DNA from: Anaerolineae bacterium | Lineage (GTDB): Bacteria > Chloroflexota > Anaerolineae > B4-G1 > SLSP01 | DNA length: 62,310 nt | Reading direction: 5' to 3' | NCBI GenBank assembly: GCA_034429675.1 | Contig: DAOUFX010000184.1 | Span: forward strand, 1 to 62,310 | Shown here: positions 6,886 to 60,185 of the stretch, piece by piece | Numbering within the stretch: the stretch's first letter is position 1 | Layout of the letters: every line of letters starts with the position of its first letter | Program-made: the position numbers and the translations under genes | The notes under the pieces: generated by a model | The model's input: the letters and a program-made list of their open reading frames with translations, nothing else | Database searches by the model: none | Told to the model about the DNA's origin: nothing

Positions 6886-6898
6886 TGTGTTTTCCTTT

Positions 6899-10054: not shown

Positions 10055-10081
10055 TAACAGGGTGCTTGAAGAGGCCTTTGA

Positions 10082-10354: not shown

Positions 10355-10469
10355 ATGCCAGATTCTATGGTCGCTTTGTTGGTCTTGTTGCGCATGGAAA
10401 TCAGCTTCTCCTCATAGTTTATTCTCAATTTTTGGAAATAACCGATTTGCGTTTCCCTTCCACTTGTTT

Positions 10470-10497
10470 TTGACTAGATTGCAACTCGTGGTATAAT
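10470..10497 (+). promoter_or_regulatory. strong sigma70 promoter with extended -10 (TTGACT-16-TGgTATAAT) for rpoB
   Basis: TTGACT at 10470-10475 and TGGTATAAT at 10489-10497. It leaves a ~115-nt leader with two short hairpins before rpoB. Confidence 0.6.
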
Positions 10498-10617
10498 GAC
10501 CTGTCGCTTATCCTAACCGATTTGTTTGTTTGGGTATGGTATAAATTGGGGCGCAAGTCGGTTGGCCCCACGAGGGCATAATCTCGTGGTTATTAAAGGA
10601 AGACTGCCGGGAGGAAT

Positions 10618-14529: not shown

Positions 14530-14534
14530 AGCGG

Positions 14535-14562
14535 TTGACCTTTTTGTGCTTTGTGGTAGAAT
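14535..14562 (+). promoter_or_regulatory. sigma70 promoter with extended -10 (TTGACC-16-TGgTAGAAT) for the str operon
   Basis: TTGACC at 14535-14540 and TGGTAGAAT at 14554-14562, immediately after the rpoB stop. A ~150-nt leader contains the hairpin AGGCCATC/GATGGCCT (14634-14658). Confidence 0.55.
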
Positions 14563-14715
14563 CCTGCTTTGTTGATGGAAGCGGCTACAAACCCCGTTTC
14601 CAACATCTTAACAAAAACCGGTCTACAATGAAGAGGCCATCGCAGCGTAGGATGGCCTTGTTTGCTGAAAATTAGTATAGTCGTGCCTTAGTAAGGCATT
14701 CAACAGGAGGAAAAA

Positions 14716-15138
14716 GTGCCCACAATTAATCAGTTGGTGCGCAAGGGTCGTAACCTTCAGGCGAAGAAGTCTAAGTCTCCCGCGATGTTATATAACATCA
14801 ATACAAAGAAGGGTGGGCGACGGACTCGCGTCAAGGGCGGCAATCCGCAAAAGCGTGGTGTGTGTACTGTCGTACGCACGGAGACCCCGAAGAAACCGAA
14901 CTCTGCCTTGCGGAAAGTAGCGCGCGTGAGACTTTCTAATCGTATTGAGGTGACGGCGTATATTCCTGGCGAGGGACATAACTTGCAGGAGCACTCTGTC
15001 GTTCTGGTGCGTGGTGGTCGTGTAAAAGACTTGCCCGGTGTGCGCTATCACATTGTTCGTGGCAGTTTAGACTCTACGGGTGTAGAGGGTCGTCATCAGC
15101 AGCGTTCCAAGTATGGAACCAAGCGTGCTGAGAAGTAA
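14716..15138 (+). CDS. rpsL: 30S ribosomal protein S12 (140 aa, with internal insertion)
   Basis: [12 protein letters not shown]...[35 protein letters not shown] start after AGGAGGAAAAA. Confidence 0.97.
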
Positions 15139-15161
15139 TTAGGAAGCGGAGTGATACAGGT

Positions 15162-15632
15162 ATGTCAAGACGATCTCGTCCTGCAAAGCGTGTAGTTTCG
15201 CCTGATGTTCGTTATGGCAGCGTTGAGGTGCATAAATTCATTAACCGGATGATGCACGGCGGTAAGAAGAGCGTTGCTCGTGGTGTTTTCTATGGCGCGC
15301 TTGACCGAGTTGAAGCTCGCGCCAACAAACCGGGAATCGAAGTTTTCAATGCTGCATTGCAAAATGTAATGCCAGCGCTTGAAGTTCGTCCTCGTCGTGT
15401 CGGTGGTGCCACTTATCAGATCCCTGTCGAGGTGGAATCTCATCGGCAGCTCGCATTAGCTATTCGTTGGATTTTGGAAGCAGCCCGTAAGCGTGGTGGT
15501 CGTGGTATGGCTGAAAAATTGTCAGCGGAACTGATGGATGCTGCCAGTGGTGTGGGTGCCGCTGTTAAGAAACGCGAAGAAACTTTAAAGATGGCAGAGG
15601 CGAATCGCGCGTTTGCTCACCTGCGTTGGTGA
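15162..15632 (+). CDS. rpsG: 30S ribosomal protein S7
   Basis: MSRR..PD.RYGS..V.KFIN.MM..GKKS and a C-terminal [10 protein letters not shown] signature. Position after rpsL. Confidence 0.97.
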
Positions 15633-15701
15633 ACTGATTCCGTCTGTGATGGTTTTGCAGGCGGCGTAGCAGGGCTGTCGCCGGTGCATGAGGTTTAGGC
15701 G

Positions 15702-44273: not shown

Positions 44274-45617
44274 TTAATTCTGTCCGTATAATTGCGCTTT
44301 AATGGTCATAACTTCACGTTTGAACTGGTCATCTTGTTCAAGACGGGCGCGTACTCGCTGGTAGCCATAGAGAATCGTCGTATGATCGCGTCCACCCAAT
44401 TCCGCTCCTATTTGCGGCAGCGAGGCATGGGTTTCTTCACGCAGTAAGTACATAGCGATTTGTCGGGGTTCCGCAACGCGGCGACTACGGCGTTTTCCAC
44501 AGATTTCGTCTTTTGACACACCGTAGTAAACGGCGATGGTGCCGATGATCTCGTTGGGGGAGATGTCTGGTCGGTTCGGCAGCAAGTCTGCCAGCGCTTT
44601 TTCGACAATAGATTGTGTGAGCGGCAATCCAGTGAGGTTGGTCATAGCCAACACCCGATTGAGCGCGCCTTCCAATTCACGAATGTTGCTCTCGACATTG
44701 GTTGCAATGTAGCTTAGAATGTCGTTGGAGACATTCACGCCAAGTTGTTCGGCTTTCGACTGTAGGATTGCTACACGGGTTTCGTAATCCGGTGGTTGGA
44801 TGTCTACAATGAGTCCCCATTCAAAACGAGAACGTAGACGCTCTTCCAATGTGACCATAGCTTTGGGGGTGCGGTCGCTGCTGAGGACAATTTGGCGTTG
44901 GGTGTCACGCAGGGCGTTGAAGGTGTGGAAGAATTCTTCTTGTGTACTTTCTTTGCCCGCAATGAACTGGATGTCGTCTACGAGAAGTACATCTGCGGTG
45001 CGGTATTTCTCTCGAAAGGATTCGGTGGTGTGCGTGCGGATGGCTTCGATGAGATCATTGGTGAAGGTTTCAGAGGATATGTAGAGCACCTGCATGCCCC
45101 GTTTGCAGCAGGTGTGACCGATTGCGTGTAACAGATGGGTTTTGCCTAAGCCCACCCCCCCGTGGATGAAAAGTGGGTTGTAGGCTCTGGACGGGGCTTC
45201 GGAAACGGCTTGCGAAGCGGCTTGCGCCAGACGGTTGCTGGACCCCACAACAAAACTTCGAAATGTGTAATCAGGATTGAGCCCTGGGTCTTGAATGGGC
45301 ATTGACATAGCAAACTCCATTTCTTGAAGCAGGGGTGCGGGAGCATGATTGGCCATCGTATCTTCCCATACGATGAAACGCGCCTGCATCTCTTCCCCTG
45401 TGATGCGTTGTAAGGTACGTTGAATCAGCGCATAAAGACGGTGTTCTAACCATTCCACCGCATAGCCATTTTTGACCCCAACAATCAAGGTGTCGTTGTT
45501 CTCAGTTCCGATGCAATGCGTGTCGCGCAGCCATGTGTCAAAGGTTGCGCGTGTCATCTGCAATTCGAGTTCGCCGAGCGCTGTTTTCCACAGCTTTTGA
45601 TGTTTCCCGTTGTTCAT
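44274..45617 (-). CDS. dnaA: chromosomal replication initiator protein DnaA
   Basis: NPLFIHGGVGLGKTHLLHAIG (Walker A), LLVDDIQF (Walker B), sensor/box VII, and C-terminal DNA-binding domain R..R.IAMYL.RE.T..SLP.IG..GGRDHTT. I prefer the ATG at 45617 (AAGGTGG 5 nt upstream) over the GTG at 45626. Confidence 0.95.
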   Translation of the reverse strand: MNNGKHQKLWKTALGELELQMTRATFDTWLRDTHCIGTENNDTLIVGVKNGYAVEWLEHRLYALIQRTLQRITGEEMQARFIVWEDTMANHAPAPLLQEMEFAMSMPIQDPGLNPDYTFRSFVVGSSNRLAQAASQAVSEAPSRAYNPLFIHGGVGLGKTHLLHAIGHTCCKRGMQVLYISSETFTNDLIEAIRTHTTESFREKYRTADVLLVDDIQFIAGKESTQEEFFHTFNALRDTQRQIVLSSDRTPKAMVTLEERLRSRFEWGLIVDIQPPDYETRVAILQSKAEQLGVNVSNDILSYIATNVESNIRELEGALNRVLAMTNLTGLPLTQSIVEKALADLLPNRPDISPNEIIGTIAVYYGVSKDEICGKRRSRRVAEPRQIAMYLLREETHASLPQIGAELGGRDHTTILYGYQRVRARLEQDDQFKREVMTIKAQLYGQN

Positions 45618-45626
45618 AAAATCCAC

Positions 45627-46021
45627 CTTGAGGTTTTGTCACACACCCACCTTATGATGTGTGCATTGATAGGCTGATCACCACTTGGGCCTGCTAAGAG
45701 GAATTTTGGTTTTGGGAACCGTATCCTTCGTGACCATGTACATTCTACCAAAAAAGACGGATTGTGGCAATGCAAAACGAGTCTTTTTACCTTAAAAACT
45801 ACTAAGTTTTAATATTGCTTTTTTGTTTGTGAATAGCAATCTTGCTTATCGGTATAGGTATGAACTTCCTATAGTTCTGCTACTATATGTGCCGTTTTCT
45901 GTGTGGAAAGGGGTTGGGATAACACGGTAAGGAATTGTTTTTACCAGGGCAGTTTGTGGGAACTCAGATGTCAATCTACTTTTATTTTGCTGTTGTTGCT
46001 AAGGCTCCAAAAACTTACTTT
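45627..46021. other. candidate oriC / dnaA control region (AT-rich, degenerate DnaA boxes)
   Basis: A 395-nt non-coding stretch upstream of dnaA with an AT-rich core at ~45781-45900. Boxes with 2-3 mismatches to TGTGGATAA lie at 45763-45771, 45828-45836, 45902-45910, 45955-45963 and, inverted, at 45914-45922. No perfect box was seen. Confidence 0.3.
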
Positions 46022-46594
46022 TCAAGGGCGTCGCCGACTTTCTCTCAGGTTGACCCGACCTTCTTCTATTTGTCGCGAGAGGGCCATCCAATCCTCGACC
46101 GGCAGAATGAGGGTCTTTTCGTGAGGATGGAGTAAGTACGGATGCATCCAGAACTTGAGCCACCACAAAGGCATGGGGAACGCCTTCAAGTCAACGGCAA
46201 CGACTGTGCGTCCCCAGATGCTCTGATACATGGCCCAGCGTGCACGTTTCTCTTTCTCGGGTGGGAAGATGGTATTAAACATGACCGGACGGGTCATGGT
46301 TACCCGTCCATAGGAGAAGCTTATCGGAAGAAAGGGTGTGTGAATAACGAAATGTTGTTTGTGCAGTCGTATGCATGCCAGGCGTGCCATAAGCGCATAA
46401 ACCGCCAGCAGCCCGCCGATAAGGGTAATGCCTAGCGTCAATGCTCTAAGACGTGGATCTGGCAGGGAGAGATTGGGAGCGACCCACCACAAACCAACCC
46501 CGCCGGGGATCAACCAGAGGGCAGGGCCAAACCAGCGCTTGGCTAGAACCTGATAGGGAAGCAATCGAAACTGGGTTCTGGGTTTTCGACTCAT
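46022..46594 (-). CDS. hypothetical membrane protein (two TM helices + soluble C-domain, possibly bPH-like)
   Basis: TM segments ALWLIPGGVGLWWV and LTLGITLIGGLLAVYALMA. The ATG at 46594 forms an ATGA overlap with the nth stop. The track ORF start at 46681 lies inside nth. Confidence 0.55.
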   Translation of the reverse strand: MSRKPRTQFRLLPYQVLAKRWFGPALWLIPGGVGLWWVAPNLSLPDPRLRALTLGITLIGGLLAVYALMARLACIRLHKQHFVIHTPFLPISFSYGRVTMTRPVMFNTIFPPEKEKRARWAMYQSIWGRTVVAVDLKAFPMPLWWLKFWMHPYLLHPHEKTLILPVEDWMALSRQIEEGRVNLRESRRRP

Positions 46595-47268
46595 GATGTT
46601 TTCTCCTGGGAGAGATGAGAATAATGCTCGCAAATGTCTTGAAGCTGACATTTCTCGCATTTGGGGAGATGGGCGTGACATGTATGGCGCCCGTGGAGGA
46701 TAAGGTTAATGTGGAGAGGGTAGTAAAGATCCGGCACCACGAGTGATTCCAACAACCAGTGCGCTTTTTCGCGCGATGTTGCGTCAGGAATCAGGCCCAG
46801 TCGCCGACTCAGGCGGTGGATGTGGGTGTCCACGGGAAAGGCCGGGCGCCCTAATGCAAAAAGTAAGACGATAGCGGCTGTTTTGGGGCCGACGCCATCA
46901 AGGTTAAGCAACCAGGCTCGCGCTTCCTCCAAAGGCATATCGCGCAGAAATTCCAGGGTGAGTTCACCTTGCGCCTCGGTGATGGTGTGTAGCGCTTTCT
47001 GGATATGCGGCCCTTTGGTTGGGGCTAATCCCGCCGGGCGGATGCTGTGGATGACCTCTTCGGCAGGAGCATCGCGCACGGCTTCCCAGGTCGGGTAGCG
47101 TTCGCGCAGTTGGGCGAACGCGATGTCGCGGTTGCGGTCGTTGGTGTTCTGGCTGAGGATGGTGTTGACCAGTTCTGCAATCGGTTCTCCGTGAGGCAGC
47201 CAGGGATGATCCCCGTAGACCCCGCAAAGGCGGCGGTGAATCTCCTGGATTTTTGCCGATACTTCCAT
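46591..47268 (-). CDS. nth: endonuclease III-family (HhH-GPD) DNA glycosylase with 4Fe-4S cluster loop
   Basis: LVNTILSQNTND.N, the HhH-GPD region L.LDGVGPKTAAIVLLF...PAFPVDTHI.R, and C-terminal C-x6-C-x2-C-x5-C (CHAHLPKCEKCQLQDIC). I chose the start at 47268 to avoid overlap with the Nudix gene. Confidence 0.85.
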   Translation of the reverse strand: MEVSAKIQEIHRRLCGVYGDHPWLPHGEPIAELVNTILSQNTNDRNRDIAFAQLRERYPTWEAVRDAPAEEVIHSIRPAGLAPTKGPHIQKALHTITEAQGELTLEFLRDMPLEEARAWLLNLDGVGPKTAAIVLLFALGRPAFPVDTHIHRLSRRLGLIPDATSREKAHWLLESLVVPDLYYPLHINLILHGRHTCHAHLPKCEKCQLQDICEHYSHLSQEKTS

Positions 47269-47279
47269 CTTCGCCGTCG

Positions 47280-47738
47280 TTATTGCAGAACCTTGTGCGC
47301 GCGTTTCACCCATTCTTGTTCTACTTCAAAGGTCAGGTCGGAGTATGCTTCTTCCCATGTGGCCCAGACCGGGAAAAATTGTCGATCGTCGGCGTCCGGG
47401 CGTGATGTTTGTTGCAGTGAACGCGCGCGCATCAGGAAATAATGTTCGGTGCGTTGCACTCTTTGCCCGTCGAGAGGAAAAACTACCATCTGTTCGCCTA
47501 AGTCTGCCAGGATTTCTATGTCGGTATATCCGGTCTCTTCTGCGACCTCGCGCAGGGCCGTTTCACTGTGAGTCTCTTTCGGCTCCACGTGACCTTTGGG
47601 TAAGCGTACCTCATCCCGCGACGGACGGATGAGCACCAACACTTGATCGCCGTCTGTGTTGGTTACTACGCCGCCGGCAGCCTGGTAATTGATGACTCCC
47701 GATTGTTTGAGCATTGCCATCGCTCCTTTCTCATTCAT
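47280..47738 (-). CDS. NUDIX hydrolase
   Basis: Nudix box GHVEPKETHSETALREVAEETG (G-x5-E-x7-REUxEExGU). The start may be an internal ATG (47720 or 47714), both preceded by AAAGGAG. Confidence 0.85.
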   Translation of the reverse strand: MNEKGAMAMLKQSGVINYQAAGGVVTNTDGDQVLVLIRPSRDEVRLPKGHVEPKETHSETALREVAEETGYTDIEILADLGEQMVVFPLDGQRVQRTEHYFLMRARSLQQTSRPDADDRQFFPVWATWEEAYSDLTFEVEQEWVKRAHKVLQ

Positions 47739-47859
47739 GTAAGCAATATGTCTGCCGTTGTGTCATCTCATTAAAAAGAGGAGACGGGGGGGGACTTGGG
47801 GGCGGGCGCAGGCCGCCCCCCAAGCCTCCACCCCAGATTTTGAGATGATAGCTGTTAAG

Positions 47860-49029
47860 TTATACCGGATGTTGGGGATTTGGCAAAGCTATGTCGGCAT
47901 TCTCGGTTGGGACGCCGGCGTTGACAGCCAACGCCACGGCTGCCGCACGTGTGTGCACTTCCAGTTTGCTGAAGATGGCTTTGAGATGCCGTTTGACGGT
48001 GTTGGTGGTGATGCACAGGGCGCCGGCGATTTCTTTGTTGGTCATCCCCTGCACTAACAATTCCAGAACTTCTTGTTCGCGCAGTGTCAGAACTTCGAGG
48101 GGCGTTCGGCTTTGGCTCAGGCTCCGCGCTTCGGAGACGGCCTGCAAGAATGCCCGCCGGTTGAAGGTTTGTTTTTCGAGGTAGGCGAAAACGCCTTGCT
48201 TGCTGTAGATTCGTTCAATCTCTTCTGGCGCAGCTATGCCGCTGACAACGATGGTGGGAATTTTAAGCGCATGGGTGTTATTCAGTACCTGATAACCTTC
48301 CAATTCCGGCCTGGTTGCCAGCTCCTCCGGTGAGATAGCGCCGGCTAACGAAAGGTCCACGATTGCCAGGCGATAGTTCTCGCGGCGGAGGCATCCCAAC
48401 GCTTCGCCGAAGCTGTTGCACAGACGCACCTCGTATCCAACGTCTCGTAGCAATTCGGCGAGAATGTTGCGCCATCCGGCATCGTCTTCGACGACTAACA
48501 CCGCTCCCATTGCTGCGTTTTGGGGGCTGCGCCCGGCGGCGCTTGCCGCAGATCCGGTTTTGTCGTCGGGTCGGTCGTTCCCCTTTTCTATGGAGGATGC
48601 GCTGGCCAACGCCTGTTCGATCAGTCTCCGAAATTCGGCCCGATCGAAGGTTTCCTTGCGCAAGCAACTGAACGCCCCATAGTGCGTCATCACGTTCACG
48701 GCCAGTTCGACTGTGGCGAATCCGGTGAGCATAATTGGCACACAGCCGGGATCGTGGCGGCGCACGGCATCCAGCACCCGTATCCCATCTTGATTGTTGA
48801 AATCCCCCTCGCCCAGCGCCAGGTCAATGACAGCAATCCGGTGTGGGTGAGCGCGCAGAATGTCACCGGCCGCCGCGAAGTTGTCCGTCAAATCCACGGC
48901 AAGCCCGGCGTCGCTGAGGATTTCTCTGAGAATCTGCTGCCAGGAGCGATCGTCTTCGACGATGAGGGCGCGCGGGCGCGCGACCTCGCGTGTGCTTTCA
49001 GGGGCGCTTGTGCGCGAGCGAGCGCTCAA
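47860..49029 (-). CDS. LuxR/FixJ-family response regulator with two tandem receiver domains
   Basis: REC1: LIVEDDRSW...IAVIDLAL...IMLTG...CLRK. REC2: LVVEDDAGW...LAIVDLSL...IVVSG...YLEK. C-terminal HTH: LTLREQEVLELLVQGMTNKEIAGALCITTNTVKRHLKAIFSKL. TTG start overlapping the kinase stop. Confidence 0.85.
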   Translation of the reverse strand: MSARSRTSAPESTREVARPRALIVEDDRSWQQILREILSDAGLAVDLTDNFAAAGDILRAHPHRIAVIDLALGEGDFNNQDGIRVLDAVRRHDPGCVPIMLTGFATVELAVNVMTHYGAFSCLRKETFDRAEFRRLIEQALASASSIEKGNDRPDDKTGSAASAAGRSPQNAAMGAVLVVEDDAGWRNILAELLRDVGYEVRLCNSFGEALGCLRRENYRLAIVDLSLAGAISPEELATRPELEGYQVLNNTHALKIPTIVVSGIAAPEEIERIYSKQGVFAYLEKQTFNRRAFLQAVSEARSLSQSRTPLEVLTLREQEVLELLVQGMTNKEIAGALCITTNTVKRHLKAIFSKLEVHTRAAAVALAVNAGVPTENADIALPNPQHPV

Positions 49030-51335
49030 GACGCCTCCGCGCGCGGCAACCGGAGCCGGAAGGCGGCGCCGTGTTGTCCGTCGCTTTCTACGGCAATGGT
49101 CCCGCCCAAACGCACGATGAGCGTCTTAACCCACCACAATCCAAATCCGAGTTTGCCGCTGCGTTTAGGGGCGCGCTCGGCGGCGTTAAACTCGAAGATG
49201 CCGGTATGGCGTTCTGGCGGGATGCCAGGGCCATTGTCGCTGACGACAATCTCAATCCATTGGGGTTGGGGGGCGCCCCGGATAATGATCGCGCCGTTTC
49301 CTTGCATGGCATGAGCTGCATTCTCCAGCAGATTGGTGAAGACCCACGTCAGGCTTTGTTGCCCGGCTATGACCGGCGGCAGAGCGTCCACGCCGGCTGT
49401 GTCCACGCTGATGGCGCTTTCGGAGAGACCGGACGCCTGGATGGCGGCGTTGATGCATTGGGCGATATTGACCGGCGCCAGGTGCAACGGACGCAAGTGC
49501 GTCAGATTTTCACGCACCGCGTATAGCGCTTCGCGTGCGCTGCGCTCGATTTCTTCTAAGTTGGCAGCTAGATACTCGTTGGCTGCGAGCTCGTTCGCGC
49601 ATTTGTCCTGAATGCCCTGGATGCGCACGGGGATGGTGCCCACTTTGTTGTTGAGGTGATGGAGTACGTTGGCAGCGACGTCGCCGACCGCGGCAAACGT
49701 CTCGGCCACGGCATGCCGCTCCTGGGTCGTGCGTAACATCTGTTGCCATTCGGCGCTGTGGAGGGCCAACGCGGCGAAATGCGCCAGGCAGGTCAGCACC
49801 TTTTCATCCCATTCGGATTTTGTGAAGTGCCCCGGTTCCGCCGTAGCGCCATAGACGCTGAAGGCTCCGATGGGCTCGCGACGGTCGCTGGAAAGCAGCG
49901 GCACGATGAGCGCTTCACCCCAATGGCCTTCCTGGGCCAGGTCGGCGCGGTAGAAGCGTTGGTCGGCCTGAACATCTTCGGAGGTGATGGTGCGCCCCTG
50001 CAAGATAGCCAGTCCGGTCAAACTCCCGCGCAGGGGGAGTCTCTCCCCGTGTCCTTGCTCCTGGCTGGCGGCTTGCAGATGAAGGATGTCGTCTTTGAGC
50101 GTCCAGATGGCGCAGGCGGCGGCGTTTAATAATTTGGCGGCAAGTCGGGCCAGGTGCTCCAACACCTGACGGCATGGTTGCACCAACAACAGCCGGGTGA
50201 CTTCGAGGAGCGCATCCAGCAAGCGCGCCTCCTGGATGGCAATGATGGCTTGCGTCGCCAGCGTTTGCAGGGAGAGGCTGTCCTCCTCGCTGAAGGCGCC
50301 GATGAGCGGGCTTTCGAGGTTCAGCACCCCTTCCAACCTGCCGCCGGAGCCGATGAGGGGCACTGCCAGTTCTGAGCGCATGCTCAGGTCGGCGTAGAGT
50401 GGGCGATAGATGCGCACCCACGGAGCAGCCTGCAGGTCGTGAATGCGCAGCGGTTGGCGGTGCCCGGCGACCCAGCCCATGATACTGTGATCGTCAATGG
50501 GCAGGACGTCGGCTTGCGGACGTCCGTGATCTACGCCGGCGACCGTGTGGGCCACCAGCGCCGTCGAGTTCTCATCCACGAGTCTGAAGATACCGTAGTG
50601 GGCGCCGGTGATATCCAATGCCATGTGTAGGATGGTTTCCAACGTCTCCTGTAATCCCAATCGCGACGAGATGAGCATGCCGGCGCGGCGCAGGCGTTTC
50701 AATTCTTCTTCTTTTCGTTGCAGGTCGCGTTGGACGTTTACCAGGCGGCGCGCCTGGTAGATGGCCATCGCGGCTTGATTGACGAAGTTCTCCAACATCA
50801 GCAGTTCGATTTGATCAAACCGGCGTTGTTCGTGCAGGTAGACGTAGAGCGCGCCGACGGCCTGGAAAGCCACCACCAACGGAAAACAGGCCATCGCTCT
50901 GGCGCCGGCCTGAACTTTCATGGGATGGATGGTGAGATCGGGTTCTTCATACGAGATGACGCGGCGGCGCTGGCTGATGGCGCGCACGCCGATACCGTCT
51001 TCACGTGGGCTGTCCTGGTGTGGCGCACCGGTAGCTTCCCCCGCCGACACACGCGAGGTGAGGTCGAAGGTGTGCTGGCTCTGGTCGTACATATAAATCA
51101 CCGCCGAGGCCCCCGGCACGACGCGGATAGCGCTTCCGACAATAAGCAGGAGGGTATCCTGCACTTCTCCGCCGGGGTCAAGTTCGTGGTGCAGTTTGCT
51201 CTGCGGGCCGAAGCGGTTGATAGCTGTGCCGACCTGGTTCAGGTTGGTCAGCGCCTCAAGGAGGCGGCTGTCAACCTGCTTCAATTCAGCCTCGTTTTGC
51301 ATTGCCCCTGCCATTCTATACTTCGATTCACCCAT
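49026..51335 (-). CDS. cytoplasmic sensor histidine kinase with three GAF domains
   Basis: Three GAF-like blocks, each ending ...VPL/FPL..xx..GxLxV/L. Degenerate H-box AANVLHHLNNKVG. N box FTNLLENAAHAM. G boxes DNGPGIP and GFGLWW. No TM segment. Confidence 0.8.
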   Translation of the reverse strand: MGESKYRMAGAMQNEAELKQVDSRLLEALTNLNQVGTAINRFGPQSKLHHELDPGGEVQDTLLLIVGSAIRVVPGASAVIYMYDQSQHTFDLTSRVSAGEATGAPHQDSPREDGIGVRAISQRRRVISYEEPDLTIHPMKVQAGARAMACFPLVVAFQAVGALYVYLHEQRRFDQIELLMLENFVNQAAMAIYQARRLVNVQRDLQRKEEELKRLRRAGMLISSRLGLQETLETILHMALDITGAHYGIFRLVDENSTALVAHTVAGVDHGRPQADVLPIDDHSIMGWVAGHRQPLRIHDLQAAPWVRIYRPLYADLSMRSELAVPLIGSGGRLEGVLNLESPLIGAFSEEDSLSLQTLATQAIIAIQEARLLDALLEVTRLLLVQPCRQVLEHLARLAAKLLNAAACAIWTLKDDILHLQAASQEQGHGERLPLRGSLTGLAILQGRTITSEDVQADQRFYRADLAQEGHWGEALIVPLLSSDRREPIGAFSVYGATAEPGHFTKSEWDEKVLTCLAHFAALALHSAEWQQMLRTTQERHAVAETFAAVGDVAANVLHHLNNKVGTIPVRIQGIQDKCANELAANEYLAANLEEIERSAREALYAVRENLTHLRPLHLAPVNIAQCINAAIQASGLSESAISVDTAGVDALPPVIAGQQSLTWVFTNLLENAAHAMQGNGAIIIRGAPQPQWIEIVVSDNGPGIPPERHTGIFEFNAAERAPKRSGKLGFGLWWVKTLIVRLGGTIAVESDGQHGAAFRLRLPRAEAS

Positions 51336-51450
51336 AGACTGCCTTGATTTTCTCCATTTTCAAAGGTGACAAGGCATTGTAACACGTGCGCGCAGCTTGT
51401 CCAAATGGCTCGACTCTTTTTGGTCGCGTTTCATTTTCAAATTCCAAAAA

Positions 51451-51478
51451 ACGAGGCCGGAGTATTCCCCGGCCTCGT
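51451..51478 (-). terminator. rho-independent terminator of glnA
   Basis: ACGAGGCCGG (51451-51460) pairs with CCGGCCTCGT (51469-51478). On the minus strand it is followed by TTTTTGG. Confidence 0.75.
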
Positions 51479-51538
51479 CTGAGATATTCTAAACAGGGTG
51501 GGGGCAGTCCAAATCCCCACTCTCTCATTTCCCAATCC

Positions 51539-52948
<1,410 letters not shown>

Positions 52949-53018
52949 CGCTCTTTCCTCCTACTCTTATTTTCATCTGACATAGTTGAAATTTCGTCTC
53001 GTCTTCAAGGACTCTTCC

Positions 53019-53047
53019 ATTATAGGGGTGACCATGGGGGGGGTCTA
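53019..53047 (-). promoter_or_regulatory. sigma70 promoter candidate for glnA (TAGACC-17-TATAAT on minus strand) containing a C8/G8 homopolymer
   Basis: The reverse complement of 53019-53024 is TATAAT and of 53042-53047 is TAGACC. The G8 run at 53036-53043 spans the spacer/-35 junction. Confidence 0.4.
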
Positions 53048-53091
53048 GTACCCAATCGGGTCATTTTTCTTGATCAGATTATAATGGTCAG

Positions 53092-56000
53092 ATGATGGAG
53101 CGTACATTTTACGAGCGCGCGCGCGAGTTGCTGTTTGACCATGTCGGCGCGGAAGCCATTCGCCAGTGGTTGACGCCCCTCGGCATTGCGGATTGGCGGG
53201 CGGCGCATCGCTGCTTGCTGCGCATGGCGCAGGAATCGCAGGCTGCGCCGGCGTTGTCCAACCTGTTGCCCTATCTGTTGTTAGCGCTCGCCGATGCGGC
53301 CAATCCCGACCGCGTGTTGGTAGGGTTGGAGCGTTTCATCCGCAGCACTCCTGACAAATCCGGCATGATGGAGTATCTGGCCGCGAATCCGCGCGCGGTT
53401 GAAATCCTGGTGACATTGTTTGCCGGCAGTCAATTCCTCACCGAAATTCTTCTCCGTAACCCCGAATATTTCTCACGGTTGATGGAGCAACGCACCCTGT
53501 CGTCCCCCAAGGGCGTGGATCAGTTTAACGCCGAGGCGCGCGCGGCGGCGTTCCCTGAGGCTGGCGATGGCGCAATCATCGCTGTGGAAACCCGCCTGGA
53601 CGCCATGCGGCGCTTTCAGCGATGGGAATTGTTGCGAATCGGCGCGTGTGACCTGCTGGGCCTGCTGCCGCTGTCGGTAGTCACTTCACAATTATCCAAC
53701 CTCGCCGATAGTGTGGTCCAGACGTGTCTGGAGATTGCTTCCGCCCAAACCGGCGTCCCGGCGGAGGGTTTTGTGGTGCTGGCCATGGGAAAGCACGGCG
53801 GGCGCGAGTTGAATTACAGCTCGGACATTGACCTCCTTTTTCTGACTCGGGCCGACGCCGGGAATTACCTGCGCCTGGCCGAACGGCTGATTGCCGCGTT
53901 GACGCAGGTGACCGGCGAAGGATTTTTATACCGGGTGGACATGCGGCTGCGTCCCTGGGGGGAGACGGGGGCGCTGGTGGTTTCGGTGGACGGGTATCTT
54001 GCCTATCTCGAAAAATACGCGCGGTTGTGGGAGAAACAAGCTTTGCTCAAGGCGCGTCCCGCTGCCGGAGACGTGACGGTGGGTGAGGCTTTTTTGAACC
54101 GGGCTATGCCCCTGATCTTTGAGGAACAGCCCCTTGCCGTGCGTGCCGGCGCTTATGCCATGAAGCAGCGCACGGAGGCTTATTTGCGGCAACAAGGACG
54201 CCATTGGGGCGACGTCAAGTTGGGAGAAGGCTCGATCCGCGACGTCGAATTCGTCATTCAGTATTTGCAGATGATCTACGGTTCGCAGTTTCCCGAAATC
54301 CGCAGCCGCAATACGTTGGATGCGCTGGCGCGCGCGGTGGTGTGCCGCATCCTGGCCGCCGAGGATTTCCGGGTGCTTACCGACGGCTACACATTTTTGC
54401 GGGCCATTGAACATCACTTGCAGATGATGCATTACCGGCAAACTCACGCCTTGCCCGACGATTCCGTCGCGTTGGCGCAACTGGCTCAGCGCCTGGGATT
54501 TCAGGGAAAAGACGCAGGGGTGCAATTCCTGGCCCACTACGAACAGCATCGTATTGCGGTGCGGGCTGTCTACTTGCATTATCTTGGGGAGGGCGAGATG
54601 GGAAGATTGAATCCGGCAGAAGAGTCACTGCGCAGGGGCGTTTTCGGCGCTGAATCCTCCGCCGAGCATCCTTCGGGTTTTTCGGCGCATATCTCACGGA
54701 TGGATCCGGCGTACACGGCAGTGTTTAGCCCTGAGGAATTGCAATCTCATGCCGCGCTCGCCGGGCAACTCAACGCCGATACGCTGGTGAAGGTTGCTGC
54801 CGTTCCGTTGGAAGACGGTCGCTGGCGCGTCACCGTCGTCGCCTACGACTATTTGGGGGAGTTGTCGCTGATCTGCGGCTTGCTCTTTGTTTATGGGTGC
54901 GCCATCAGAGACGGCAACGTCTTCACCTACGAGCCGGCCTCCGCCGTGCAACGGCAGGAATCGCGGCGCAAAATCGTGGATGTTTTCACGGTGTACCCCG
55001 AACATAAGACGGTGACCGCGGAGACCTGGTTGTCATACGAATCCGACCTGGCCGAGTTGTTGCAGCTGATGCACCGCGATTGCCGCCGTGAGGCGCGTGG
55101 AATCCTCGCCAAGCGTTGGGCCGACAGCCTCCGCGATACGCCGGCGGTGACCACGCCGCTCTATCCCATTGACATTCAATTTGACAACGAAGTCTCCGAA
55201 CGGTACACCCTGATGCACATTGACGCCCCCGACACCAGCGGTTTCCTCTACGAGTTCACCAACGCGCTGGCCTACAGCCGTATTCACATCGCGCGGATGA
55301 CCGTCGCTTCGATCGGAGCGCGGGTTCACGACATCCTCTACGTCACCGACGCTAACGGCAAGAAGATCACGTCGCCCGAACGGCAACATCAGCTGCGGGT
55401 GGCCTCGGTGTTGATCAAACATTTCACGCATCTGTTGCCGCATTCCCCCAACCCTGAATCAGCTTTGCTCCATTTTCGTGAATTTGTCGAGCAGCGTTTC
55501 CGCAAGGAGGACTGGACCGCCGAATTGGCATCACTGGAACGCCCGGAGGTGTTGAACGCTTTGGCGCGACTGTTGGGCGTGAGCGATTTCCTTTGGGAGG
55601 ACTTTTTGCGGATGCAGTACGCGAATCTGTTCCCGGTGGTGCGCGATCTCGACGCTTTGCACACGATGAAGACGCGCGAGCAGTTGCAGGTCGAGCTGGA
55701 GTCCACGCTGCGGCCGATTCACGACGGCCCGCAGTTGCCCTCCGACGACGCGCCCTGGCAGCAGGCGCTCAACGCTTTCAAGGATCGCGAGATGTTTCGC
55801 ATTGACATGCGGCACATCCTGGGGCACACCCAGGAGTTTGGGGATTTCTCGGATGAGCTGACGGCGTTGGTCGAGGTGGTGGTCAATGTCGCTTACCACC
55901 TCTGCCATGAAGATTTGCGGGCGGTGTACGGCACGCCGCAGCTCTCCGAGGGCGAGGCCCAAAGCGACGTGAGCGAGATGGCGGTCTTCGGGCTGGGCAA

Positions 56001-56826
56001 ATGCGGCGGGCGCGAGTTGGGCTTTGCCTCGGATATCGAGTTGATGTTCATCTATGCCGGCAACGGCTACACCACCGGGCCGAACGTCATCACCACGTCC
56101 GAGTTCTACGAAAAGTTGGTGCAGACCTTTGTCAGCGCCATCCAGGCCCGACGCGAGGGAATCTTTGAAATTGACTTGCAGTTGCGTCCCTATGGCAAAG
56201 CCGGCAGCATGGCCGTTTCGCTGGAAGCATTTTCGCGTTATTATGCTCCGGACGGCCCTGCCTGGGCCTACGAACGCCAGGCTTTGGTCAAGTTGCGCCC
56301 GATCGCCGGGAATTTTGGGCTTGGCCAGCACGTCGCCGCGCTGCGGGACGCTTTTGTCTACACGCCTGATTCGTTCGATGTGACGGCCATGCGGGCGATG
56401 CGCGAGCGTCAGGTGCGGCATCTGGTTACGGGGGGAACTTTCAACGCCAAATTTAGCCCCGGCGGGTTGGTGGATGTGGAGTATCTGGTGCAGGGTTTGC
56501 AAATCACGCACGGGTACCAACGCCCGGAGCTGCGGCTGACGCAGACCCGTGAAACGATGGCGGCGCTGGCGGCAGCGGGGATTCTTCCGTCTGATGATTA
56601 CACCTGGCTGCGCAAGGCTCACACCTTTCTGCATTGGCTGATTGATGGGCTGCGGATGGTTCACGGCAACAACAAAGACCTGACGGTCCCGCCTGCCGAT
56701 AGTGAGGCTTTTGCTTTTCTGGCGCGACGCTTGCGGTATGGCGACGACGTGGCGCGGCTGCGCGATGAGTTGACCCGCTACACCGTTCGGGTTCAAGAAA
56801 TCGGCACGCGACTGCTGGGGGGCTAA
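53092..56826 (+). CDS. glnE: glutamine synthetase adenylyltransferase/adenylyl-removing enzyme GlnE with internal tandem ACT-like insertion (1244 aa)
   Basis: Two GlnE nucleotidyltransferase motifs: GKHGGRELNYSSDIDLLFL (~53787-53845) and GKCGGRELGFASDIELMFIY (~55991-56050). About 240 extra residues between them resemble GlnD ACT domains (see findings). Confidence 0.9.
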   Translation: MMERTFYERARELLFDHVGAEAIRQWLTPLGIADWRAAHRCLLRMAQESQAAPALSNLLPYLLLALADAANPDRVLVGLERFIRSTPDKSGMMEYLAANPRAVEILVTLFAGSQFLTEILLRNPEYFSRLMEQRTLSSPKGVDQFNAEARAAAFPEAGDGAIIAVETRLDAMRRFQRWELLRIGACDLLGLLPLSVVTSQLSNLADSVVQTCLEIASAQTGVPAEGFVVLAMGKHGGRELNYSSDIDLLFLTRADAGNYLRLAERLIAALTQVTGEGFLYRVDMRLRPWGETGALVVSVDGYLAYLEKYARLWEKQALLKARPAAGDVTVGEAFLNRAMPLIFEEQPLAVRAGAYAMKQRTEAYLRQQGRHWGDVKLGEGSIRDVEFVIQYLQMIYGSQFPEIRSRNTLDALARAVVCRILAAEDFRVLTDGYTFLRAIEHHLQMMHYRQTHALPDDSVALAQLAQRLGFQGKDAGVQFLAHYEQHRIAVRAVYLHYLGEGEMGRLNPAEESLRRGVFGAESSAEHPSGFSAHISRMDPAYTAVFSPEELQSHAALAGQLNADTLVKVAAVPLEDGRWRVTVVAYDYLGELSLICGLLFVYGCAIRDGNVFTYEPASAVQRQESRRKIVDVFTVYPEHKTVTAETWLSYESDLAELLQLMHRDCRREARGILAKRWADSLRDTPAVTTPLYPIDIQFDNEVSERYTLMHIDAPDTSGFLYEFTNALAYSRIHIARMTVASIGARVHDILYVTDANGKKITSPERQHQLRVASVLIKHFTHLLPHSPNPESALLHFREFVEQRFRKEDWTAELASLERPEVLNALARLLGVSDFLWEDFLRMQYANLFPVVRDLDALHTMKTREQLQVELESTLRPIHDGPQLPSDDAPWQQALNAFKDREMFRIDMRHILGHTQEFGDFSDELTALVEVVVNVAYHLCHEDLRAVYGTPQLSEGEAQSDVSEMAVFGLGKCGGRELGFASDIELMFIYAGNGYTTGPNVITTSEFYEKLVQTFVSAIQARREGIFEIDLQLRPYGKAGSMAVSLEAFSRYYAPDGPAWAYERQALVKLRPIAGNFGLGQHVAALRDAFVYTPDSFDVTAMRAMRERQVRHLVTGGTFNAKFSPGGLVDVEYLVQGLQITHGYQRPELRLTQTRETMAALAAAGILPSDDYTWLRKAHTFLHWLIDGLRMVHGNNKDLTVPPADSEAFAFLARRLRYGDDVARLRDELTRYTVRVQEIGTRLLGG

Positions 56827-56832
56827 GTTACT

Positions 56833-58437
56833 TTACGGTTCAAGTCCGCCGAAATATTCGCGGACGTACGTGCGCAGCGCCGGTGGGTAGGCGTTGCTTG
56901 AAAGAGACGCCTCAGCATCTTCGGCGTAATCGGCGTAGACTTCGCGATACGGCACTGTGGCCGGTCCGGGAACTCCGGTTTGCGGGTCCGCCTGCCCCTG
57001 TGTTTTCTCTCGGGGAATCGTGATTTCTCCGCCACGGCCTTCCAGACGTGCAGCCTCGGCGTTTCCGTAGGGGGCGCTGCTGCCGGAGTCTTCGCTGTGG
57101 CCGCTGGTTCCTTGCCCTGATCCGTTCCCACTGTTTCCTTGCTGCCCCTGTTGGCCGCCGTTCCCTTGCTGTCCCTGCTGCCCTTGCTGCCCGCTATTCC
57201 CTTGCTGCCCGCTATTCCCTTGTTGCCCCTGTTGTCCTTGTTGCCCCTGCTGCCCTTGTTGCCCGCTGTTCTGGTTCTGTGCGGTTTGCTGGGTTCCTCC
57301 CAGTTTCTCCTGGGCTTGCTGGAGGCCGGCCTGAGCTTCTTCCAGACTTTGGTTAGGTGCATTGTCCTGGGCTGCCTGCGAAAGGGTATCCGCGGCATCC
57401 GTGAGAGCTTCTCGCGCGCCGTCGGCGTTGCCCCGGTAGATTTCCTGGGAAATATCGCGGAATTGTTGCGCCAGTTCGGGATCGCTTTGTTGCAGTTGGT
57501 CGGCGATTTGGCTGAACGCATCGGCCAGGGCGGCCACTTCCTCTGCGGTGAGCGGGCGCCCGTTGACCGGGTCGGTGAAGCTGCGAAGGTATTCGGCGGC
57601 GGCGGCGACATCGCCGCGTTGCAGCGCCTCGGTCAGCGGTTGCACGATGTCCTCCGTCGAAAGCGGGGCAGCTTCGGCCAGGTTTTGAATACGCTGCTCG
57701 CTTTCGGACGAGTGCAGCTCGGCCAGCTGGCGCTCGGCTTCGGCCAGCGCCGCTAATTGTTCTTCGGTGGTGCTGCGAGGATCACTGAGAGTTTTCAGGG
57801 CCTCGTCCAGCGCCTTGAGGGCGGCCTCGCGTTCGGCCTCGGTAAGCGGCGCTTCCGCCAACGCATCGCGGGTGGTTTCTAATTGCGTGGCCGCTTCGGC
57901 GATCATCTGTTGTTGCGCCTTGATCCGCGCCAGTTCAGCTTCTTGCGGGTTCTCAAGGAGGAGCGCCGGGACCAGGAGCAGGCTCAGCACGAGAATGGCC
58001 GTGCGGGCGATGCGCGGCAAACGCACGGGGAACGCCGTCTGCGGTTCCACCGCGCGCAACGTTGCCAACGTCTCTTCGCGCTGTAGTCTGACCAAAGCGT
58101 CCGGCGCGCTGATGCGCGCGCCGTTCAGTTCCCAGGCCGTTGTCAGCCGGTCGGCCAGCTCCAATCGCCGGTCGAAGAGGCGCAGGCGGCGCGCCGGTGA
58201 GCCGGACCAGCCGTATCCTACCGTAATCCCGACAAGGCTGCCGCCGAGCAGAATCCAGACCAGACTTAAGACGAGGTCGCTGCGATACCACAGCGGCAGA
58301 AGTCGCGCGGCGAGCGCCGCCGTCAAACTGATTCCCAACGCCGCGGCCAATCCCCAACCCAATCCGGCGACGGCGCGGTGGCGGCGCAACGCCTCGGTCA
58401 GCCGGTTGAATTCAAGCGCCAGTTCCGGGGGCATCAT
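56833..58437 (-). CDS. membrane-anchored coiled-coil protein with Gln/Gly-rich (QQG)n low-complexity tract
   Basis: Three TM-like segments in the first ~170 aa, then long Ala/Glu/Leu-rich helical regions and a QQGQQGQQG...NSGQQG array. The C-terminus is PYREVYADY...LRTYVREYFGGLEP. The ATG at 58437 forms an ATGA overlap with the upstream gene stop. The track ORF start at 58524 lies inside that gene. Confidence 0.65.
   Translation of the reverse strand: MMPPELALEFNRLTEALRRHRAVAGLGWGLAAALGISLTAALAARLLPLWYRSDLVLSLVWILLGGSLVGITVGYGWSGSPARRLRLFDRRLELADRLTTAWELNGARISAPDALVRLQREETLATLRAVEPQTAFPVRLPRIARTAILVLSLLLVPALLLENPQEAELARIKAQQQMIAEAATQLETTRDALAEAPLTEAEREAALKALDEALKTLSDPRSTTEEQLAALAEAERQLAELHSSESEQRIQNLAEAAPLSTEDIVQPLTEALQRGDVAAAAEYLRSFTDPVNGRPLTAEEVAALADAFSQIADQLQQSDPELAQQFRDISQEIYRGNADGAREALTDAADTLSQAAQDNAPNQSLEEAQAGLQQAQEKLGGTQQTAQNQNSGQQGQQGQQGQQGQQGNSGQQGNSGQQGQQGQQGNGGQQGQQGNSGNGSGQGTSGHSEDSGSSAPYGNAEAARLEGRGGEITIPREKTQGQADPQTGVPGPATVPYREVYADYAEDAEASLSSNAYPPALRTYVREYFGGLEP
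57138..57270. repeat. in-frame 9-nt-period minisatellite (CCYTGYTGY on + strand = QQG codons), including a perfect 18-bp tandem duplication
   Basis: CCCTTGCTGCCCGCTATT occurs at 57181-57198 and again at 57199-57216, read directly. It is flanked by imperfect 9-nt units. Confidence 0.85.
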
Positions 58438-59372
58438 TGACGCTCCGGTTTTCTCAGGCGCACACAAGTACGCCAAAGGAGAAAGGCGACGGTGATCAAG
58501 GTCGTTACCGTGAAGGTGATCCACGGTGAGGGCAGCCAGACGACAGTGCTGGTATGGCCGGTAGCCGCATTATGATCAATTGTAAACTCCAGGAATCCCC
58601 ATCCCTGATCCAGTCCTAGCGCTTCCGTTCCAATGGCGGCTGACAGGGGATGTAGACCGATCAGGATGACCCAACCGCATTGAAGGAAGGCATCTATCCA
58701 GAAGGGGAGGTATACCGGGTCGCCGTTACTGGCGTACATCGTGCGGTACGTCCAACTCTGATAGATACTCATAAAAATGCTGACGATAACGGCCAGGATC
58801 GGCACCAATGCGACTTGAATCCCATAATACAAAATGACGGCGGCGATGGTTTTCCGCACCAGCGAAGAGGTGAAAATGGCCCAGGCGATGTTGAGCAACA
58901 TGGTCATCGTCAACAGCAACATCGTCAGCAACAACTCCGTCGTCGTCACACTTCCGATCCAGTAGCCGGCCATCAAGAGGGGCAACGGTGAAAGCACGTA
59001 GACGGCGCCGGTCATCAGGGCCGCCCCGACTTTGCCGAAGACGATGTCTCTGGGTTTAAGCGTGGTTGTGACCAATAGCGCCAGAGTGCGGTTTTCTTTC
59101 TCGCCTGACAGCGCTCCCAGGGCGTTGATGGGCACCAGAAGTTCGGCCGTCAGAAGCAAAACGATGCCGGAAAACCAGAAGATGGCCCTTCCTTGCGTAA
59201 ACAGATCCAGAATGGAGATGTAGGAATTTGCCTCAACCCAGCTGGAGACGTCCGAAAGCAGCGTGAACGCCAGGGCCAGCAGCCCTATCACTAACAAGTA
59301 GATACTGAGCAACCAGAAAAAGCGGTTGCGACGCGCGCTACTGTAAAGATGTCGGCTCAATAAAGGATTCAT
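58434..59372 (-). CDS. ABC-2-type permease-like polytopic membrane protein (no ATPase partner in window)
   Basis: About six hydrophobic helices. The N-terminus ..RRNRFFWLLSIYLLVIGLLALAF is typical of ABC-2/GldF-like permeases, judged from memory of the family. GGAGG SD upstream. Confidence 0.55.
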   Translation of the reverse strand: MNPLLSRHLYSSARRNRFFWLLSIYLLVIGLLALAFTLLSDVSSWVEANSYISILDLFTQGRAIFWFSGIVLLLTAELLVPINALGALSGEKENRTLALLVTTTLKPRDIVFGKVGAALMTGAVYVLSPLPLLMAGYWIGSVTTTELLLTMLLLTMTMLLNIAWAIFTSSLVRKTIAAVILYYGIQVALVPILAVIVSIFMSIYQSWTYRTMYASNGDPVYLPFWIDAFLQCGWVILIGLHPLSAAIGTEALGLDQGWGFLEFTIDHNAATGHTSTVVWLPSPWITFTVTTLITVAFLLWRTCVRLRKPERQ

Positions 59373-59531
59373 AGGACCTCCGGTTTGATTATACCGTTGA
59401 GGGAACGTAAATCAAGTTCGCGCTTTTTGGAACCTTTAGCCGGGATGAGTCGTTCTCAACCGTTTTTTGGCCCGGAATGGGATACCCATCCGGAATGTGC
59501 AGTTGAAACTACGATGATAAAGGAGTGAACG

Positions 59532-60185
59532 ATGAAAAAGCTATTGGGTGTAATCTGTGTTGTCTTGTTATTGGGCGCTTGCGCGTCAGCTTCATTGCCG
59601 GCTCAGGAAGCGACTGTATTGACCCCTGGAACTTATGCACGACCAACTGCGGGAGCAGGGGAGACCGCGACTCCGGCTATGCCAACCCTGGATGCCACGG
59701 CAACCGCGTATGCGCCAGAACTGTTGGCGACGCACACACCGTCTGTGGAATTGCTTGTAACGCCTACGCCGGAACGACCGTCAGATTTGTCTACGCCTAC
59801 GCCGCCGGCGGATGCATCCTTGACGACGCCAACGGCGCCGGCGGCAGCGCCGACACAGACGCCACCGCCTTCTACACCGTGGGCAGAATCGGAGACAGTG
59901 GTTTTTCTGCGGGCGAAAGTAGCCGAAGCCTTTGGCGTGCCGTCCGCTGCTTTGACGCCGCTGCTTCTCGAATCGGCGAGCTGGCGCGATTCCAGCCTGG
60001 GCTGTCCGCAACAAGGGATGCAGTATCTTCAAGTGCTCAGTGAAGGCTGGCGTGTAGTTTTCAGTGATGAAACCGGGAAATTGTACGAAATTCATGCAAC
60101 ACAAAACCTCTCTCAGGTGGTTTTCTGCGACGAGGCTCAAATCGGCCGATTGGATGATGCCTCTGTCTCCGATACGCAAAAATAA
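59532..60185 (+). CDS. secreted lipoprotein with Pro/Thr-rich linker and C-terminal 'W-x-D-SSLGCP' domain
   Basis: MKKLLGVICVVLLLGAC|ASAS lipobox, a PT/A-rich spacer of ~100 aa, then ...SWRDSSLGCPQQGMQYLQVLSEGWRVVFSDETGKLYEIHA. AAGGAG SD upstream. Confidence 0.7.
   Translation: MKKLLGVICVVLLLGACASASLPAQEATVLTPGTYARPTAGAGETATPAMPTLDATATAYAPELLATHTPSVELLVTPTPERPSDLSTPTPPADASLTTPTAPAAAPTQTPPPSTPWAESETVVFLRAKVAEAFGVPSAALTPLLLESASWRDSSLGCPQQGMQYLQVLSEGWRVVFSDETGKLYEIHATQNLSQVVFCDEAQIGRLDDASVSDTQK

Follow-up and report, generated by a model that had tools for sequence, protein, structure and literature searches.

A GlnD-type tandem ACT module separates the catalytic halves of a predicted Anaerolineae GlnE

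The adenylylation cascade acting on glutamine synthetase (GS) is a textbook case of control by covalent modification. In Escherichia coli, the enzyme GlnE is built from two paralogous halves. Each has a nucleotidyltransferase (NT) domain, with a G-x-G-G...D-x-[DE] motif, and a helical domain. The adenylyl-removing (AR) half comes first (PDB 1V4A) and the adenylyltransferase (AT) half second (PDB 3K7D). The enzyme senses glutamine via an unmapped site in the AT half, and is also dependent on PII and PII-UMP. The uridylyltransferase GlnD has a pair of ACT domains in its C-terminal regulatory region. [quoted passage not shown] Here, we describe a predicted GlnE in which a GlnD-type ACT pair lies between the two halves. 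The gene is on contig DAOUFX010000184.1 of assembly GCA_034429675.1, from an Anaerolineae bacterium. The stretch analysed, positions 1-62,310 of this contig, is referred to below as the window.

Several other described systems bear on this protein. Canonical GlnE has no ACT domains and senses glutamine directly, via the C-terminal AT half; dependence on PII differs among species. In Streptomyces coelicolor, and for AT activity in Herbaspirillum seropedicae, GS adenylylation involves direct glutamine sensing without PII or GlnD. These enzymes consist of the canonical two halves and, unlike the window protein, have no ACT domains. GlnD-like ACT domains are also found on, or acting on, metabolic enzymes. 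Thus, the Chlamydomonas alpha-amylase AMA2 is rendered glutamine-activated by a GlnD-like ACT domain; this domain is single, and required for activation. Plant ACR11 and ACR9 belong with AMA2 here, and the second ACT domain of the window protein falls in the ACR9-like ACT family (Pfam). However, these are proteins of eukaryotes, the enzymes concerned are not related to GlnE, and none is linked to GS adenylylation. A bacterial relative is Nitrospira moscoviensis ALA57717.1, annotated as "putative GlnE, subunit A (Modular protein)". It has an ACT pair followed by an AT-like half (ACT2-AT), and both parts are orthologous to those in the window. The AR-like half is in the adjoining gene, on the opposite strand (NITMOv2_1289/1290), whereas the window has one fused polypeptide. 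The N. moscoviensis protein is known from genome annotation alone.

The window gene and its parts are listed below. We call the N-terminal half Y and the C-terminal half X; classes A, B and C are architectures introduced later.

53092-56826, + strand: glnE, open reading frame (ORF) of 1244 aa; Pfam GlnE twice, GlnD_UR_UTase twice; NCBIfam PRK11072.
53092-54591, + strand: Y half, aa 1-500, AR-like NT and helical domain; aligns to residues 39-438 of E. coli 1V4A and to the AR part of each of the three NCBIfam GlnE models.
53788-53835, + strand: Y-half catalytic motif GKHGGRELNYSSDIDL, aa 233-248; ELN..SD[IV]D, as in the AR half of 9/9 canonical GlnEs.
54592-54672, + strand: variable, gap-rich linker between the Y half and the ACT2-X unit, aa 501-527; majority frequency 0.20, 43% gaps; predicted local distance difference test score (pLDDT) below 50.
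54673-54777, + strand: lead helices of the GlnD-type module, aa 528-562; align to GlnD 652-690, helical in the model.
54787-55074, + strand: ACT1, aa ~566-661, loop motif DYLGELSLICGLL; a beta-beta-alpha-beta-beta-alpha unit in the model, aligns to GlnD ACT1.
55075-55164, + strand: helical linker between ACT1 and ACT2, aa 662-691; placed by model and conservation profile.
55165-55407, + strand: ACT2, aa 692-772, loop-helix motif APDTSGFLYEFTNAL; PF24931 above gathering score, aligns to GlnD ACT2.
55408-55491, + strand: junction helix HFTHLLPHSPNPESALLHFREF, aa 773-800, joining ACT2 to the X half; majority frequency 0.90, conserved in classes A, B and C.
55492-56823, + strand: X half, aa 801-1244, AT-like NT and helical domain; orthologous to the ACT-attached halves of classes B and C; Foldseek matches 3K7D and 1V4A.
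55996-56043, + strand: X-half catalytic motif GKCGGRELGFASDIEL, aa 969-984; nearest to the beta/gammaproteobacterial AT motif ELGY[SA]SDLDL.

Judged by its sequence, the ORF encodes a bifunctional GS adenylyl-removing/adenylyltransferase, in the order Y (AR-like), linker, ACT module, X (AT-like). PF03710 matches two stretches of the product (E 7e-102), as does the PF08335 helical domain (E 1e-38). The PRK11072 equivalog cut-off, which E. coli GlnE also passes, is exceeded (529.2 bits versus 487). Scores are under the cut-offs of PRK14109 (463.5 versus 625) and PRK14108 (369.8 versus 724). The pol-beta-type motif G-x-G-G...D-x-[DE] is complete in both halves, and both motifs are complete in 114/120 homologues. 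Unlike in E. coli, X has Glu as its second catalytic carboxylate (D-I-E). The halves are only ~23-32% identical to those of E. coli GlnE, and fall only marginally on the AR and AT sides in the profile comparison described below. The spacing of the two motifs is 736 residues (GKHGGRELNYSSDIDL, aa 233; GKCGGRELGFASDIEL, aa 969), compared with 528 in the 946-aa GlnE of E. coli MG1655 (aa 161 and 689). Hence, the protein does not have the canonical contiguous layout of two halves and a short linker in ~950-1000 aa. Instead, ~245 extra residues, comprising lead helices and two ACT domains, sit between the halves. By BLASTP, this insert maps between E. coli residues ~448 and ~504, a range that comprises the linker and the first part of the central region. 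The N half aligns to 1V4A up to query residue ~500. Note that the database twin of the product has 1243 aa, starting at the second ATG.

The insert (aa 501-790) was compared with NCBIfam GlnD equivalog models. It matched the C-terminal part of several of them, best at positions 690-917 of 940 in PRK05092 (E 1.8e-22) and positions 620-842 of 850 in TIGR01693 (E 2.3e-16). When a 14-sequence profile of the module was aligned to E. coli GlnD with hhalign, the match (96.3% probability, E 1.6e-9) ran over 218 columns, GlnD 652-870. This span takes in the lead helical segment, ACT1, linker and ACT2 of GlnD. In Pfam, PF24931 (ACT_ACR9_3rd) covers ACT2 (aa 695-769) with 32-35 bits, against a gathering score of 27. 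The generic ACT model, PF01842, stays under threshold (12-14 bits versus 27) and no Pfam model detected ACT1 in a search of the glnE product. These comparisons confirmed, at the level of sequence, that residues ~528-772 are homologous to the whole C-terminal regulatory region of GlnD, and not merely to ACT domains in general. There is no GlnD-type uridylyltransferase domain and no Pfam match to an HD domain. GlnD equivalog models give 113 bits or less, versus cut-offs of 519-1567, and their matches are only to the ACT region or the common NT fold. The module is C-terminal in GlnD, whereas in this family it is internal or N-terminal, before its catalytic domain.

The fold was predicted with AlphaFold2, using aa 500-830 and a 52-sequence alignment. 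The model (pLDDT 86; predicted template modelling score, pTM, 0.84) contains two beta-beta-alpha-beta-beta-alpha units, so that the insert is confidently predicted to form two ACT folds. The predicted units are in keeping with the beta-alpha-beta-beta-alpha-beta type of fold of the ACT superfamily, which has a conserved beta1-loop-alpha1 segment (Asp/Gly). All significant Foldseek matches to the ACT-pair model in the PDB are tandem ACT or ACT-like regulatory regions. They include the mycobacterial L-GDH180 N-terminus, the IlvA regulatory domain, aspartate kinase regulatory subunits, the GL3 ACT-like domain and GcvR. In structure, the closest neighbour of the ACT pair belongs to the 180-kDa glutamate dehydrogenase of mycobacteria, namely its ACT-like N-terminal region (PDB 9hv6/7jsr). 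This enzyme likewise acts at the glutamate/glutamine node, and the ACT fold is common to both. Searching the PDB by sequence gave no similar solved structure for the insert, only chance peroxiredoxin matches.

The initial annotation, made from the DNA alone, had noted a 1244-aa glnE ORF with NT motifs about 735 residues apart, and had given ~946 aa and a ~525-residue spacing for the E. coli enzyme. Measurement bears these figures out. It had also read the insert as a GlnD-like tandem ACT module, as the profile searches, hhalign and AlphaFold now bear out. Since the insert is such a module, the label of GlnE/GlnD chimera is fair as regards domain content. Finally, it had named no characterised example, and our text search of 8.3 million papers found no publication naming GlnE together with an ACT domain. 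Although uncharacterised, the architecture can be recognised from the domain tables of databases and from the label "Modular protein" given by one annotator. Enzyme and sensor module are each known, whereas their combination is undescribed.

We considered whether the insert might be an artefact, arising from misassembly, from fusion of gene calls or from a pseudogene segment in decay. One search is in line with this; the insert alone, queried against an index of 5.8 billion proteins, gave only fragments of less than 500 aa. Conversely, the full-length query returned more than 120 clusters (90% identity) of 1184-1320 aa with the same Pfam domain set. Named clusters are called "glutamine synthetase adenylyltransferase", and are from metagenome-assembled genomes (MAGs) of Anaerolineae, Anaerolineales or Thermoflexales. 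A module profile was also used to scan GTDB, with one genome per species. At least 559 species, mostly Anaerolineae, encode the module, this count being a lower bound. Locus statistics here and below refer to the best 80 of these, with 10-kb flanks. Nearly all are Anaerolineae-class Chloroflexota (Anaerolineales, Ardenticatenales, Caldilineales), with one Thermoanaerobaculia MAG. The N half, module and C half are contiguous in one frame in 80/80 loci. The module is also strongly conserved, as described below. Given the species count and the contiguous loci, the insert is neither an artefact nor peculiar to the window genome. We rejected this explanation and consider it to have next to no chance of being correct.

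When 1.84 billion representative sequences were searched exhaustively by phmmer, the insert gave 1936 matches, 98 of them at E <= 1e-30. Canonical GlnD was absent among the top 150, which divide into three architectures. Class A proteins (~1170-1260 aa) have a central module, as in the window (AR-ACT2-AT). Class B proteins (~720-785 aa) have an N-terminal module followed by a single GlnE half (ACT2-AT), and are the standard form in Nitrospirota. In 4/5 class B loci examined, a separate Y-type protein of 530-574 aa is encoded by the adjoining gene, on the opposite strand. Class C proteins (~1250-1275 aa) have an N-terminal module and then two GlnE halves in permuted order (ACT2-AT-AR). When all halves were compared with each other, they fell into two orthologous groups. 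Group X always has the ACT pair directly before it; its members are the window C half, the class B proteins and the first of the two class C halves. Group Y never carries the pair, and comprises the window N half and the other class C half.

Some further observations concern the split and permuted forms. Split loci of Nitrospirota and relatives are at L008 8363-12220, L091 6391-10292, L092 4096-7993 and L093 2917-6994; the products are an ACT2-AT protein of ~730-765 aa and an AR-only half of 530-574 aa. Permuted members are P0264 (L006 10001-13762), P0265, P0293, P0294, P0302, P0306 and P0308. Their half order is the reverse of canonical GlnE and, in the one class C locus examined, no GS was found near the gene. 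We also considered standalone ACT-pair proteins of ~300 aa as a fourth architecture. This was rejected; two that were looked up are labelled partial, and so are fragments. Four module fragments of 290-350 aa (P0001, P0007, P0009 and P0032) are called separately on contigs of 229 kb to 1.95 Mb. These are probably frameshifted gene calls in long-read assemblies, and not true standalone ACT pairs.

To assign the halves, we built separate AR-half and AT-half hidden Markov models, because BLAST, NCBIfam full-length models and Foldseek did not separate AR from AT. The models derive from nine canonical GlnEs (E. coli and eight from gamma-, beta- and alphaproteobacteria and actinobacteria). Leave-one-out controls were correct in 18/18 cases. 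Y halves fell on the AR side in 6/6 cases (+11 to +54 bits), the window Y half by 31 bits. X halves fell on the AT side in 7/7 cases (-13 to -40 bits), the window X half by 21 bits. The motif signature agrees: Y has the canonical AR sequence ELN..SD[IV]D, while X resembles the beta/gammaproteobacterial AT motif ELGY[SA]SDLDL. These comparisons lend moderate support to the view that the ACT pair stands before an AT-like half.

Conservation was scored as majority frequency. The value for the module (0.73) is close to that of the Y half (0.75) and below that of the X half (0.82), so constraint on the module is comparable to that on the catalytic halves. The only variable, gap-rich stretch, aa 501-527, lies between Y and the module. 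Within the module, conservation is strongest in the beta1-loop-alpha1 segments and at the junction of ACT2 and X. Segment 581-600, in ACT1, reaches 0.91, and the loop motifs DYLGEL (ACT1) and DTSGFL (ACT2) are conserved. Positions invariant across all three architecture classes cluster in ACT2, and fall within these best-conserved segments. The beta1-loop-alpha1 segment is the usual ligand site of ACT domains. As far as sequence comparison goes, the ACT pair and the X half are one conserved unit. In a second AlphaFold model, of aa 520-1244 (pLDDT 84.5, pTM 0.66), the folds agree and the ACT-to-AT geometry is only moderately defined.

In our view, the ACT pair is probably an allosteric sensor acting in cis. 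Glutamine would be its most likely ligand, and it would gate the AT-like half, and with it the modification of GS with adenosine monophosphate (AMP). This proposal starts from the observed architecture, GlnD-module homology, conservation, constant attachment of the module to X, and linkage to GS. When nitrogen is plentiful, a small molecule, most probably glutamine, would bind the ACT pair. The conserved helix at the junction of ACT2 and X would relay the signal, raising the adenylyltransferase activity of X, shifting the balance between AT and AR, or both. The neighbouring GS would then be modified with AMP on Tyr397 and switched off. Once ligand levels dropped, the AR-like half would strip the AMP. 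The enzyme would thereby gain a dedicated sensor, where Proteobacteria deliver the signal via GlnD and PII together with the unmapped glutamine site of the AT half. What we infer is which ligand binds, in which direction it regulates the enzyme and that X is the AT half.

Several points weigh against this proposal. First, assignments of the ACT-GlnE family's function derive from sequence and predicted structure. Second, the AR/AT profile margins are small (11-54 bits versus 90-270 in controls), and hence the AT assignment of X is only moderately supported; BLASTP against E. coli, NCBIfam full-length models, and Foldseek against 3K7D and 1V4A all tie. Third, pTM for ACT2 plus X is only 0.66 and aa ~814-843 form a low-confidence stretch, so the model does not establish physical coupling of ACT2 and X. 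Fourth, glutamine is suggested as ligand by analogy with GlnD, since ACT specificity cannot be read from sequence and the contact residues in GlnD are not established. Finally, because canonical GlnE senses glutamine without ACT domains, the ACT pair may carry another signal.

This last point can be put as a distinct explanation, in which the pair senses glutamate, aspartate or asparagine, another amino acid or a nucleotide, atop glutamine sensing by the AT half. ACT domains do bind a broad range of ligands, including many amino acids, and the top structural matches include the isoleucine-bound IlvA regulatory domain and the aspartate kinase regulatory subunits, as well as the L-GDH180 ACT-like region. 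However, the homology is specific to the GlnD regulatory region, over ~220 columns, and not to other ACT families; GlnD-type ACT domains are those tied to glutamine. We regard a ligand other than glutamine as unlikely. It is less likely still that the pair binds no ligand and is a structural, oligomerisation or docking module that, for example, positions the enzyme on the GS dodecamer, mediates its dimerisation or binds PII. ACT domains often mediate oligomerisation, and ACR11 works by direct contact with enzymes of the glutamine synthetase/glutamate synthase cycle. Yet the most conserved positions of the module are in the beta1-loop-alpha1 segments, where ACT ligands usually bind. Moreover, where AR is encoded as a protein of its own, the module is still found on the AT-like half, as would suit regulation in cis. 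A glutamine sensor acting in cis is thus the reading that we prefer.

The genes beside glnE provide further context.

51539-52948, - strand: glnA, type I GS, the presumed substrate, divergent from glnE; Tyr397 in KDLYGLPPEE (codon 51758-51760).
49026-51335, - strand: histidine kinase with three GAF-domain matches, downstream of glnA on the same strand.
47860-49029, - strand: response regulator with a LuxR/GerE-type helix-turn-helix, downstream of glnA on the same strand.

As for E. coli GlnE, the putative substrate is a GS with Tyr397. Among the related loci, 41/80 have a GS within 10 kb of glnE-ACT, and the neighbouring GS proteins keep KDLY[EDG]LP. In one class A relative, glnA is directly upstream of glnE-ACT on the same strand. 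The trio of GS, histidine kinase and response regulator recurs in ~24/80 loci. Since it recurs beside glnE-ACT in these Anaerolineae, it may be a lineage-specific nitrogen two-component system. The layout recalls glnA-ntrBC, although the domain types are different. Rfam models had no match across the whole window; a glutamine riboswitch, for instance, was not found.

We found no PII, amtB or separate glnD gene in the window. Note that absence of glnB, glnK and glnD from 62 kb allows no statement about the genome. GlnD was also not found in the flanks of the 80 Anaerolineae loci, which total 1.35 Mb and are a small part of each genome. Three nominal tblastn matches to GlnD in the flanks were rejected, as each is a GlnE N half. 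In three Anaerolineae MAGs (L039, L049 and L052), amtB-glnK is directly beside glnE-ACT and glnA. The coordinates are 10076-12360, 1298-2844 and 6775-8315, respectively. In L039, two PII paralogues flank amtB, one with the equivalent of Tyr51 and the other with Leu. The T-loops of PII at these loci diverge from E. coli GlnK (42-45% identity overall).

These observations bear on whether ACT-GlnE is a self-contained, one-protein cascade that senses glutamine itself and replaces GlnD and PII. Elsewhere than in Proteobacteria and Actinobacteria, where glnD is ubiquitous, its occurrence is sporadic in the literature. The failure to find GlnD in the window or flanks, and the PII-independent regulation in S. 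coelicolor and H. seropedicae, are also compatible with such a cascade. However, the flanks sample little of each genome, and the PII encoded beside glnE-ACT in the three relatives keeps a Tyr51 equivalent. In addition, the nitrogen assimilation loci of Nitrospira, which has split ACT-GlnE, are drawn with GlnB (PII) and GlnD, going by a figure legend in PMC6311188. A sensor domain is also compatible with a second input. We view replacement of GlnD and PII as doubtful. The stronger version, that the relay from GlnD to PII to GlnE has collapsed into one Anaerolineae polypeptide, with the ACT pair alone setting GS adenylylation and no role for PII, seems somewhat more doubtful again. Note that the ACT pair is neither required for PII independence nor evidence of it, because GlnE lacking ACT domains senses glutamine and PII-independent GlnEs exist.

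The initial annotation was correct that glnA is divergent and keeps the adenylylation Tyr, and that PII, amtB and a separate glnD are missing from the window. Its proposal of a self-contained, PII/GlnD-independent, glutamine-sensing adenylyltransferase survives in part. Glutamine sensing is still the most economical suggestion, by analogy. The independence from PII and GlnD, and with it self-containment, is not supported; the amtB-glnK genes of the three relatives and the labelling of GlnB and GlnD in that Nitrospira legend speak against it. As a refuting case, it had named a large GlnE clade in which this architecture is already the norm in annotation and PII dependence is known. Only the first half of this applies, the architecture being the norm in at least 559 species of our scan.

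The family touches two gaps, namely the glutamine site on GlnE and the route of the glutamine signal through the ACT domains of GlnD. It sets the GlnD sensor module directly before an AT-like catalytic half, in hundreds of species from lineages abundant in the environment and in wastewater (Anaerolineae, Nitrospirota). The separate ACT2-AT protein of cultured Nitrospira is tractable for tying ligand binding to AMPylation, and the split and permuted relatives serve as natural experiments. If the relay had indeed collapsed into one polypeptide without a role for PII, which we consider unlikely, these forms would show ACT2-AT to be an autonomous, glutamine-gated off switch, opposing a separately encoded and differently regulated AR enzyme. 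The classic GS cascade would then have an alternative wiring, perhaps the ancestral one. Miscounts of GlnD and GlnE can arise in genome surveys of these phyla that address nitrogen regulation, because members are named plain GlnE, "hypothetical" or "[protein-PII] uridylyltransferase family protein". The last of these labels, given by PGAP to the ACT2-AT protein of Ca. N. bockiana (WP_447980160.1), could inflate GlnD counts.

Some further features of the window were noted. The rpoB gene (1303 aa, 10618-14529) is not followed by rpoC; between it and fusA (elongation factor G) at 15702, no ORF reaches 200 aa, and no rpoC-sized ORF was found anywhere in the window. As rpoB and rpoC are usual neighbours, their adjacency appears to be broken at 10618-17774. 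Composition changes between positions ~8000-46000 and 46000-60000. The rpoB/str/S10/spc ribosomal superoperon region is all on the + strand, with ~50% GC and strong positive GC skew (0.1-0.2). The dnaA-proximal glnA/glnE region has ~58-62% GC and little skew (dnaA is at 44274-45626, - strand). Finally, an ORF of 563 aa (56833-58524, - strand) is convergent with glnE, and 6 nt separate the ends of the two ORFs. A Gln/Gly-rich repeat in its product, QGQQGQQGNSG..., gives a sub-threshold match to collagen repeats. The gene that follows encodes an ABC-2-type membrane protein.

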